A stretch of 64,000 nt of DNA, from the NCBI RefSeq assembly GCF_056746865.1, contig NZ_CM163382.1; one strand, given 5' to 3'. Positions 52,476 through 54,437 of the stretch are shown in pieces. How positions within the stretch are numbered: position 1 is the first letter of the stretch; each line of letters starts with the position of its first letter. The notes under the pieces were generated by a model. It had not been told where the DNA came from. It saw only the letters and a program-made list of their open reading frames with translations, and searched no databases. Both the position numbers and the translations under genes were made by a program.

Positions 52476-54437
52476 ATGGCATTTAAACACTATGATGTTG
52501 TCAGGGCGGCATCGCCGTCAGACCTTGCGAAACGACTGACACAAAAACTGAAGGAGGGGTGGCAGCCATTTGGCAGTCCGGTGGCCATCACGCCTTATAC
52601 CCTGATGCAGGCCATTGCGGCGGAAGGTGATGTCACCACACCTGTGGTGGTGAAGCCGTCGGATGGAGAAGGCGCAGTTATCAGCACCACCAGCAACCCG
52701 GAGTATTACTTTGTTGTTGCCCTGGCCGGGCAGTCAAACGGTATGGCGTATGGTGAAGGGCTTCCGCTGCCGGAGACATATGACCGTCCGGACCCGCGTA
52801 TTAAACAGCTGGCGCGTCGCAGCACTGTCACGCCGGGTGGTGCGTCCTGTAACTACAATGACATTATTCCTGCGGACCACTGCCTGCATGATGTTCAGGA
52901 TTTGAGTAAGTTTTCACACCCGAAAGCCAGCGCAGCTCAGTATGGATGCGTGGGGCAGGGATTACATATCGCGAAGAAATTGTTGCCGTTTATTCCGGCG
53001 AATGCCGGTATTCTTCTGGTTCCGTGCTGCCGTGGTGGTTCTGCATTTTTGGCGGGCGATGAAGGTACCTTCAGCGAATCCACCGGCGCAAGCGAGACCT
53101 CGGCACGCTGGGGTGTAGATAAGCCACTGTACAAGGACCTGCTTACCCGTACTCAGGCCGCACTGAAGGCCAACCCTAAAAATATTCTGCTTGCAGTGGT
53201 CTGGATGCAGGGCGAGTTTGATTTGAAACAGGGTGCATACGCCACTCAGCCGGGGCTGTTTGATTCCATGGTGGAAAAATATCGTTCTGACCTGTCGGAA
53301 TTCGGAGGTCAGTGTCTCGGGGGCTCTCCGTCATCAGTTCCCTGGATTTGTGGCGACACGACCTACTACTGGAAGCAGACTTATTCTTCGCAATACGATG
53401 CGGTGTATGGTGCATACAAGACGAAATCCGCAAAAAAAATCTTCTTTGTGCCGTTTATGACGGATGAAAACGGGCGAAATGTGGGTACCAACGAGCCGTC
53501 AGAAGATCCGGATGTTGCGGATATTGGGTATTACGGAGCCGGTGGTCGAACGGACGCCAAAACCTGGACGACGGCTGACCGTAAAACGCATTTTGGATCA
53601 TGGGCACGTCGTGGGATTATTTCCGACCGTCTGGCAACGGCGATTCTTGTGCATGCCGGGAGAAACGCTGAATTCATTACCGGAAAACAGCCTGATACGG
53701 TGAAGCCCACCGGACCTTCCGGTGAAGGTACGGAGAGAGAGCCGGGAGCCCCGGTCAGTAACCGAACCCTGATGAGTCTGCTGGCGTCCGGCGAAGACCT
53801 GGCATCACAGGGCTGGCGCTATTATCACAAACCGGCGAGCGGAGACAATGTTAACAAAAACATTGCTGAAGCGGTGGTCAGTGATGCGGGGGCTACGGGA
53901 GGTAAGGCCCTGCAACTGAATAAACCGGAAAACCACATCTGGTTTCTGGAGCATGATGCAGCCGGACAGGGAGTGGAGTTACTGAAGAAGGGGGGACGTG
54001 TGAGCGTACGGTTTAAGTTGCCGGGTTCACTGGTGCCGAATCAGTTTGCCCTGGGCATTTACTGGCAGTTGTCGTCCCTGCCGGAGGGAGTGACGCTGGC
54101 AGAGGAAGGCAACGACATGCTGATGTCCTTCTTTCTGCAGACGGATGCGACGAACCTGAACGCGATGCACCACAAGAAGCCGAATGCGAAGCTGGAAACG
54201 TTCGGGGTCTTTGATAACGGATGGCACACACTGGCTTTTGAGTTTGCCGGAAACAACAGCATTCAGGTGACGCCGGTACTGGATGAGAAACGGGGGACGC
54301 CGTTCACACTGGTGAAATCTCCGGCATCAGGGGCGGCGGACAAACTGCAACTGACAGGCATATCAAAGGCGGCGACATATACGCTGCTGATTGACAGTGT
54401 GAAGGTGGAAGTGAACAACGCGGACATCGCGGCATGA
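52476..54437 (+). CDS. nanS-p: NanS-p-type sialate O-acetylesterase (DUF1737 N-terminus plus SASA/SGNH-like esterase domain)
   Basis: Product begins MAFKHYDVVRAASPSDLAKRL...; large ORF in the position downstream of the stx slot in 933W-type phages; assignment from recall. Confidence 0.75.
   Translation: MAFKHYDVVRAASPSDLAKRLTQKLKEGWQPFGSPVAITPYTLMQAIAAEGDVTTPVVVKPSDGEGAVISTTSNPEYYFVVALAGQSNGMAYGEGLPLPETYDRPDPRIKQLARRSTVTPGGASCNYNDIIPADHCLHDVQDLSKFSHPKASAAQYGCVGQGLHIAKKLLPFIPANAGILLVPCCRGGSAFLAGDEGTFSESTGASETSARWGVDKPLYKDLLTRTQAALKANPKNILLAVVWMQGEFDLKQGAYATQPGLFDSMVEKYRSDLSEFGGQCLGGSPSSVPWICGDTTYYWKQTYSSQYDAVYGAYKTKSAKKIFFVPFMTDENGRNVGTNEPSEDPDVADIGYYGAGGRTDAKTWTTADRKTHFGSWARRGIISDRLATAILVHAGRNAEFITGKQPDTVKPTGPSGEGTEREPGAPVSNRTLMSLLASGEDLASQGWRYYHKPASGDNVNKNIAEAVVSDAGATGGKALQLNKPENHIWFLEHDAAGQGVELLKKGGRVSVRFKLPGSLVPNQFALGIYWQLSSLPEGVTLAEEGNDMLMSFFLQTDATNLNAMHHKKPNAKLETFGVFDNGWHTLAFEFAGNNSIQVTPVLDEKRGTPFTLVKSPASGAADKLQLTGISKAATYTLLIDSVKVEVNNADIAA

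Follow-up and report, generated by a model that had tools for sequence, protein, structure and literature searches.

A NanS-p-family sialate O-acetylesterase gene in the late region of a Shiga toxin-free lambdoid prophage of Escherichia coli

The esterase activity of 933Wp42 (Z1466, L0105), encoded by the Shiga toxin (Stx) phage 933W, has been demonstrated (PMC8065619), and NanS-p enzymes of non-Stx prophages are also active and support growth on 5-N-acetyl-9-O-acetylneuraminic acid (Neu5,9Ac2; PMC10462455 and PMC8065619, including Saile et al. 2016 and 2018 as summarised there). Enteroaggregative, extraintestinal pathogenic and enteropathogenic E. coli strains that lack stx and have a long prophage nanS were tabulated by Vimr 2013 (PMC3658417, Table 3), and nanS-like phage genes in sequence type 131 (ST131) were studied by Kakkanat et al. 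2017 (PMC5425062). A nanS-p gene in a toxin-free prophage is already a known phenomenon, and the gene analysed here is an ordinary, well-annotated member of the family. It occupies positions 52476–54437 on the plus strand of a 64,000-nucleotide (nt) stretch of contig NZ_CM163382.1 (NCBI RefSeq assembly GCF_056746865.1), which we call the window, and it lies inside a lambdoid prophage that is integrated beside potC/potD and has its integrase gene at approximately 32595–33713. Our best explanation, in which we have high confidence as a whole, is that this open reading frame (ORF) encodes a NanS-p-family sialate O-acetylesterase of three domains joined by two fast-evolving linkers, with the activity of the allele predicted from its homologs.

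The ORF is uninterrupted over 653 amino acids (aa) plus the stop codon and begins with MAFKHYDVVRAASPSDLAKRL. An alternative in-frame ATG at 52461, 15 nt further 5′, would give a product of 658 aa. We prefer the start at 52476 because a GGTGGA Shine–Dalgarno sequence sits 7–12 nt 5′ of it, the N termini of homologs read MAFKHY or MTFKHY, and RefSeq places the start at the same codon (WP_021548048.1, ‘SASA family carbohydrate esterase’). An earlier note on this DNA had described a 653-aa ORF at 52476–54437 with a DUF1737 N terminus and had proposed a search for a SASA domain as a check. The description held, with a Pfam match to DUF1737 (E = 9.4e-16) and the same start in RefSeq, and the search returned a SASA match (PF03629, residues 83–274) of 36.3 bits against a gathering cutoff of 24.8. 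Annotation as a nanS-p-type sialate O-acetylesterase gene draws on the ORF, Pfam, matches to solved structures, RefSeq and an end-to-end match to PHROG 143, a family without assigned function; a search of the protein against NCBIfam gave noise matches only. At 100% identity, the window matches NZ_CP023142.1, the chromosome of E. coli strain CFSAN061770 from raw-milk cheese in Egypt.

The protein has three folded domains. DUF1737 (PF08410) covers residues 3–50 (52482–52625) and is of a short-loop variant, type A, with the loop GSPVAITPYTLMQAIAAEG. The NanS-like SASA/SGNH catalytic domain covers residues 73–391 (52692–53648), a segment of 319 residues that aligns with the solved structure of NanS/YjhS (3pt5, E = 1.4e-118). 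The C-terminal domain is a DUF6645 lectin-like jelly-roll, a putative carbohydrate-binding module, at residues 464–648 (53865–54419; 6yp6, ‘NanS-p’, E = 1.8e-60), of which Pfam DUF6645 (PF20350) spans residues 503–616 (E = 2.4e-43). The motifs of the SASA family are Block I GQSN, with the catalytic serine and the oxyanion glutamine, Block III (H)QGE and the Block V histidine (PMC9487903), and all are intact here: G85-Q86-S87-N88, M244-Q245-G246-E247 and H372, with D368 upstream. GQSN, QGE and His372 were invariant in a four-sequence alignment with 933Wp42, phi24B vb_24B_21 (gp84) and Stx2a_WGPS6, and across 15 diverse alleles.

In the mechanism that we propose, Ser87 of GQSN would be the nucleophile and His372 the base, and Gln86, positioned by QGE at 245–247, would form the SASA-type oxyanion hole. 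The enzyme would strip the 9-O-acetyl group, and perhaps O-acetyl groups at other positions, from sialic acids that are either free or bound to mucin, and the product, Neu5Ac, would then be catabolised through the E. coli Nan pathway. The C-terminal jelly-roll probably directs the enzyme to glycans; PMC10462455 and PMC8065619 cite Franke et al. 2020 for the description of this fold in vb_24B_21 and for the proposal of a glycan-targeting role.

To measure selective constraint, we compared the window allele pairwise with six homologs and estimated the ratio of nonsynonymous to synonymous substitution rates (dN/dS). The ratio was 0.05–0.40 for DUF1737 (0.05–0.23 within the short-loop type), 0.11–0.18 for the SASA core and 0.22–0.37 for the C-terminal domain, all approximate values because dS exceeded 1 for the larger domains. 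Linker 2 gave approximately 1.0–1.3 in five of the six pairs and 0.39 against Stx1_JNE122398, and linker 1, of only 24 codons, gave noisier values of 0.56–2.25. Purifying selection on the three folded domains, and none on the linkers, is what one would expect if three working domains are held together by flexible tethers. A pseudogene or remnant was also considered, but we rejected this reading on the grounds of the intact ORF, the conserved motifs, the purifying selection and the 100%-identical copies elsewhere.

The behaviour of the C-terminal domain bears on the choice of substrate. It is the most variable of the folded domains, with 38–58% identity between alleles, as would be expected if glycan targets change, and one could propose that the natural substrate is a bacterial surface polysaccharide, either an O-acetylated O-antigen or an O-acetylated polysialic-acid capsule, whose deacetylation serves phage adsorption or release. 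A bacterial substrate has been raised in review (PMC8065619), and some members of the SASA family use non-sialic substrates, such as acetylxylan (PMC9487903). However, deacetylation of Neu5,9Ac2 and of mucin glycans is common to every NanS-p homolog tested (PMC8065619), residues 73–391 of the window protein align with the sialate esterase NanS, and no evidence for a bacterial substrate has been reported. We consider such a substrate very unlikely and retain sialic acids as the predicted target.

The position of the gene in the prophage is that of nanS-p in Stx phages. In Stx2a_WGPS6, 933W and phi24B, the order is Q, tRNAs, stxA, stxB, esterase, DUF1378, DUF826 and holin. The window has the same order but without stx or tRNAs, and the slot is filled by an insertion sequence, presumably IS2, and an IraM-like gene. 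The DUF1378, DUF826 and holin proteins share 83%, 67% and 94% aa identity, respectively, with their Stx2a_WGPS6 counterparts. Searches with tblastn for Stx2A and Stx2B gave no match in the 64-kb window (best E values of 0.37–1.6), and Stx2A gave none in a 48-kb locus that runs beyond the end of the window to the tail-tip gene gpJ, where the locus was cut. The Stx2A probe was sensitive enough, because it picks up Stx1A at 54% identity in Stx1 phages. ARAGORN found no tRNA in the window. These results bear out the earlier proposal on both counts: the gene stands downstream of the slot that stx would occupy, and the prophage is without stx.

Many unrelated E. coli strains have retained the allele in identical or almost identical form. 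Of 5,426 complete E. coli genomes, 368 have it at full length, and 221 records are at least 99% identical; its cluster at 90% protein identity has 3,518 member sequences, and the best 120 database relatives are all from E. coli. The DUF1737 segment alone was found in 2,283 of the 5,426 genomes (42%), in up to six copies each, including UTI89 and ST131. We asked whether chromosomal nanS, which does not have DUF1737, had inflated the megablast counts and rejected this, as the DUF1737-only segment gave 2,283 genomes against 2,300. Wherever upstream sequence was available, stx was absent from all 25 IMG/VR and genome loci with an allele at least 96% identical. The stx-positive IMG/VR contigs L040–L043, L045 and L046 carry NanS-p proteins with approximately 79–81% identity to that of the window, which means that membership of the allele group does not strictly require an stx-free phage. 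These proteins are much closer than anything in a curated phage collection, where the best full-length identity was approximately 64% and all of the matches were in Stx phages.

The gene is likely to be expressed late. A Q-type antiterminator gene, the presumed activator of a late transcript that includes the esterase, lies at 49183–49737 (plus strand; DUF1133, E = 4e-105; Phage_antitermQ, 32.1 bits against a cutoff of 26; also called by RefSeq), and DUF968 (YdfU-like) and RusA genes precede it in the late region. On its 3′ side, positions 49962–50162 (plus strand) hold a 65-aa ORF and then a terminator-like hairpin at 50147–50162 (CCTTCAGTCCTGAAGG followed by a T-run), and this region is a candidate tR′-like element downstream of Q. 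The N terminus of the esterase is DUF1737, with no signal peptide, and we found no plus-strand terminator directly after its stop codon. A consensus promoter scan of positions 49100–55400 found no plus-strand sigma70-like site, but it also missed the late promoter pR′, so this result is uninformative rather than negative evidence. Because there is no signal peptide, no promoter-like site of its own and no downstream terminator, we read the esterase as part of the Q-dependent late transcript and its product as released by lysis.

Consistent with this reading, nanS-p is co-induced with stx2a by mitomycin C (PMC10462455), and z1466 ranks with the late genes that show the strongest induction (PMC8065619). 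At the window locus, the esterase would most likely be made only upon prophage induction, in a fraction of cells, and be freed by holin- and lysozyme-mediated phage lysis; the freed enzyme may benefit surviving siblings, released virions, or both. The earlier note had called the gene a plausible metabolic conversion gene independent of toxin carriage. Use of sialic acids independently of the toxin agrees with the published non-Stx NanS-p homologs (PMC10462455, PMC8065619), and the esterase assignment stood, but the term conversion gene overstated expression: homologs are Q-dependent (PMC10462455) and are silent in lysogens without an inserted promoter (PMC5425062). For the phage-borne homolog EC958_1546, for example, deletion has no phenotype, and an effect is seen only with an outward-facing promoter inserted upstream; without one, the gene appears to be silent in the lysogen (PMC5425062).

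That same homolog raises the question of whether the window gene regulates host behaviour instead. Over-expression of EC958_1546, a phage nanS-like gene, increases flhDC transcription and enhances motility in the uropathogenic E. coli (UPEC) strains EC958, CFT073 and UTI89 (PMC5425062). The effect is specific to this gene, however: its 82.7%-identical paralog EC958_1029 and two other nanS-like genes had none, and deleting EC958_1546 gave no phenotype (PMC5425062). The window allele is also distinct, at 653 aa and 63% identity to 933Wp42, compared with 617 aa and 53% for EC958_1546. We regard a regulatory role for the window gene as highly improbable, and return to the esterase and its expression.

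Expression in this particular strain could be blocked by the insertion sequence between Q and the late genes together with decay of the prophage, which would make the gene a silent passenger. The element, which we take from its terminal sequence and length to be IS2, belongs to the IS3 family, is 1,331 bp long and occupies 50205–51535 in the stx slot. It is oriented like the late operon, on the plus strand, and directly separates the Q-like gene and its hairpin from the esterase. Its terminal inverted repeats are imperfect, and the 5 bp GGTGG are duplicated at the target, at 50200–50204 and 51536–51540. The otherwise 99.9%-identical prophage of strain B2.3 does not have the element, whose insertion is clean and recent. 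In Stx2a phages, the Q–S region frequently holds elements of the IS3 family (Pascal et al. 2023).

Other features of the prophage also point to decay. An IS4 lies in the early region at 36568–37914 (plus strand; 7569–8915 of the extracted locus L001), between the exonuclease gene and the DUF1482/dicB genes, and three small early-region ORFs are annotated as frameshifted (15577–17598 of L001). These are signs of incipient decay, and RefSeq in addition calls a YdfR-family gene partial. The consensus scan detected no promoter-like site upstream of the esterase from which the gene might be transcribed on its own. By contrast, the repressor, replication, lysis and structural genes, including those of the head, appear intact. 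The esterase ORF is intact as well and 100% identical to copies in prophages free of the insertion sequence, such as that of strain B2.3, so any silencing would have to be recent. Q-modified RNA polymerase is resistant to terminators, as known from lambda, and it might read through IS2. On balance we think it improbable that the gene is silent here, and we keep late expression as our working assumption.

Several further points weigh against our explanation of the gene. The allele differs at approximately one residue in three from the tested enzymes with which it was compared, and its activity is predicted from this homology. An AlphaFold2 model of the full protein, made from a 15-sequence alignment, was too poor for use (mean predicted local distance difference test score (pLDDT) 57.7, predicted template modelling score (pTM) 0.40) and so provides no independent confirmation of the active-site geometry; for this reason, the functional assignment rests on sequence matches to solved structures. 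IS2, between the Q/late-promoter region and the esterase, may reduce or abolish late transcription, and the consensus scan did not locate pR′ itself. Approximately 93% of E. coli carry chromosomal nanS (PMC10088187), so the metabolic contribution of the esterase could be redundant. Finally, the phi24B homolog is a structural virion protein, which may call into question host metabolism as the selected function.

This last point supports a rival explanation in which the protein is mainly a virion component, as in phi24B: an oligomer of DUF1737 on the hexon centres would display the esterase and the lectin, enabling phage particles to bind or remodel O-acetylated mucin, and host metabolism would be a by-product. 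Cryo-electron microscopy and proteomics of phi24B found gp84 to be abundant in virions (2026 preprint, bioRxiv 10.64898/2026.04.10.717836). There, a DUF1737 hexamer uses a Tyr42 ‘tooth’ to plug the central hexons of the T=9 capsid, and the remainder of gp84 is removed by cleavage. Because this homolog decorates the capsid, the family may have a primary role other than host metabolism. The window protein likewise has an N-terminal DUF1737, which is strongly constrained within the short-loop type, and keeps a tyrosine in the anchor-loop region (Y41, compared with Tyr42 of phi24B); its gene is a late gene that adjoins lysis and morphogenesis genes. Related prophages, moreover, have stand-alone DUF1737 proteins in the same slot. 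In vB_EcoS-640R1 (ON470612.1, locus L014), which uses the same potC attachment site and has an HK97-type head, an IraM gene is followed by a 67-aa stand-alone DUF1737 protein (19986–20189). DUF1737 thus persists alone after loss of the esterase and lectin domains, and its presence in the esterase slot suggests that it has a function of its own.

Other observations argue against a specialised capsid partner. The anchor loop reads GSALISTAGYGAEFIQPVVSEG in phi24B and 933W and GSPVAITPYTLMQAIAAEG in the window allele; aligned, these give STAGYGAEF in phi24B against ITP-YTLM in the window, a loop three residues shorter and different in sequence, with the tyrosine retained. The SSP-type processing motifs proposed for gp84 are not conserved (DVTTP and PTGPSG). 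The prophage has a lambda E-type capsid protein (Phage_cap_E) and a gpD-like decoration protein, not the Phage_capsid_3 T=9 capsid of phi24B. As a side observation, a fourth DUF1737 loop variant, SPIISNAGYGAEFIQAIVA, which resembles the ‘AGYGAEF’ tooth loop of phi24B, occurs in the stx-negative IMG/VR contigs L061–L063 and L066–L068, where no terminase fell within range.

We then tabulated loop type against head type in 15 phage or genome loci and 80 IMG/VR loci, counting only those with the large terminase subunit (TerL) within range. Type B, with the long loop, occurred only with a phi24B-type head module (4 of 4), and type C only with the ClpP-fusion type (10 of 10). Type A, to which the window allele belongs, occurred with lambda-type (15), S78-protease-fusion/HK97-type (11), HK97-like (1) and ClpP-fusion (1) modules. 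This association of loop with head for types B and C, but not A, is suggestive and is confounded by shared descent. Even a single allele, at 96–99.8% aa identity, adjoins lambda-type (L017–L019, L023, L048), S78-fusion (L022, L033, L036, L071) and ClpP-fusion (L035) terminases. With one allele (at least 96% aa identity) beside packaging modules of three kinds (lambda-type, S78-fusion/HK97-type and ClpP-fusion-type), we assign the gene to the late-regulation and lysis module, recombining independently of the head, and consider it unlikely that it has a specific capsid partner. A generic docking may still occur, since the HK97 fold is common to all of these capsids. Taken together, we consider a mainly virion role to be the less probable explanation, although one with appreciable weight, and we continue to favour a lysis-released esterase.

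A broader version of capsid docking can be put forward more tentatively. Type A DUF1737 could be a general docking or oligomerisation module by which the esterase and lectin are mounted at hexon centres in different capsids of the HK97 fold (lambda E-type, HK97-type and protease-fusion), a proposal that we hold to be rather unlikely. If it were true, the gene would be mainly a portable, mucus-interacting head decoration rather than a host metabolic gene, moving together with the lysis module among many temperate phages of E. coli, and the constraint on DUF1737 and its stand-alone genes would reflect a virion function shared across approximately 42% of E. coli genomes.

The genes around the esterase complete the picture of the prophage. 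Directly upstream, 51880–52215 on the minus strand encodes an IraM-like anti-adaptor of 111 aa (RefSeq), with a candidate promoter of its own at 52323–52295; a Pfam search of this protein gave no match. Stx2a_WGPS6 and Stx2c_2409 have intact but unannotated homologs of 107 aa, with 73% aa identity, in the interval from stxB to nanS-p. IraM-like genes on the minus strand occur in loci L003 (approximately 5437–5757), L008 (approximately 19437–19757) and L014 (19405–19740). IraM-like sequence was found in 18 of 58 type A loci with at least 1 kb of upstream sequence. The IraM-like gene may be a true lysogenic-conversion moron in the stx slot, stabilising RpoS.

Downstream, all on the plus strand, the small DUF1378 (54574–54756) and DUF826 (54794–55039) genes, both recognised by Pfam, lie between the esterase and a lysis cassette with a class II holin (55116–55331) and a lysozyme (56263–56796). 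An Rz gene comes after the lysozyme. Between holin and lysozyme is a 297-aa ORF of the DUF1327/YdfR family (55333–56226), with DUF1327 at residues 2–101 and a C-terminal extension of approximately 195 aa that has no Pfam match. RefSeq covers just the first 336 nt of this ORF, which it labels a pseudogene and partial. In Stx2_95, an ORF of 329 aa fills the corresponding holin–lysozyme slot (L015, 20227–21216), which suggests that the 297-aa ORF is a real but mis-annotated fusion gene. The packaging and head module is lambda-type, with a Nu1/A-like terminase, portal, protease, gpD-like protein and gpE-type capsid protein; the prophage combines a lambda-type head with a Qin-like Q and lysis region.

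If active, the esterase would enable E. coli, or the community around a lysing subpopulation, to convert O-acetylated mucus sialic acids to usable Neu5Ac, a colonisation-relevant trait that is independent of Shiga toxin and already established for homologous alleles. Because the trait is established for homologs and the family is very common in E. coli, the window instance adds little. The gains are modest: the allele group at 96% identity or above was stx-free in all 25 sampled loci, and an identical allele is linked to three head modules. The latter bears on the newly proposed role of DUF1737 in capsid decoration, and this mechanistic angle is the only new one. The question of wider interest, whether DUF1737-esterases are primarily host-benefiting enzymes or virion decorations, belongs to the family as a whole.

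Among described systems, 933Wp42 and phi24B vb_24B_21/gp84 have the same three-domain architecture, motifs and genome position as the window gene, whose product is 63–66% identical to them overall and approximately 72% identical to phi24B gp84 in the SASA core. The window protein differs from both in its shorter DUF1737 anchor loop, in linkers that are unrelated, with a longer second linker, and in extra inserts in the early C-terminal region. Its prophage differs in having no upstream stx or tRNA genes and in having a lambda-type siphovirus head rather than the T=9 podovirus head of the Sepvirinae. The non-Stx prophage NanS-p proteins of EDL933 and O104:H4 (Saile, via PMC10462455 and PMC8065619) are likewise long three-domain paralogs in toxin-free lambdoid prophages, and those alleles are active. 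EC958_1546 and EC958_1029 of UPEC ST131 (PMC5425062) are similar in being nanS-like phage genes of a strain without stx and in their apparent silence in the lysogen, but they are different alleles (617 aa, 53% identical to 933Wp42).

Chromosomal NanS (YjhS, 3pt5) shares the homologous catalytic domain, with the same GQSN, QGE and His motifs. It is, however, a single-domain protein of approximately 326 aa encoded in the NanR-regulated nanCMS operon, whereas the 653-aa window protein adds DUF1737 and DUF6645, and its gene belongs to the late operon of a prophage and has neither nanC nor nanM beside it. In the alignment to 3pt5, NanS has a leucine at the position of D368, four residues before the catalytic histidine of the window protein; E. 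coli NanS is reported to lack the Block V aspartate (PMC9487903). The stx-free lambdoid phage PhiR5_1 (PV340545.1), with a 662-aa protein, has the same layout of Q, esterase, small genes, holin, DUF1327 gene and lysozyme. Its lambda E-type capsid protein is 95% and its DUF1737 98% identical to those of the window, compared with 69% for the SASA domain and 49% for the C-terminal domain. Because the latter two domains are divergent, the PhiR5_1 and window genes are mosaics that share only the N-terminal module.

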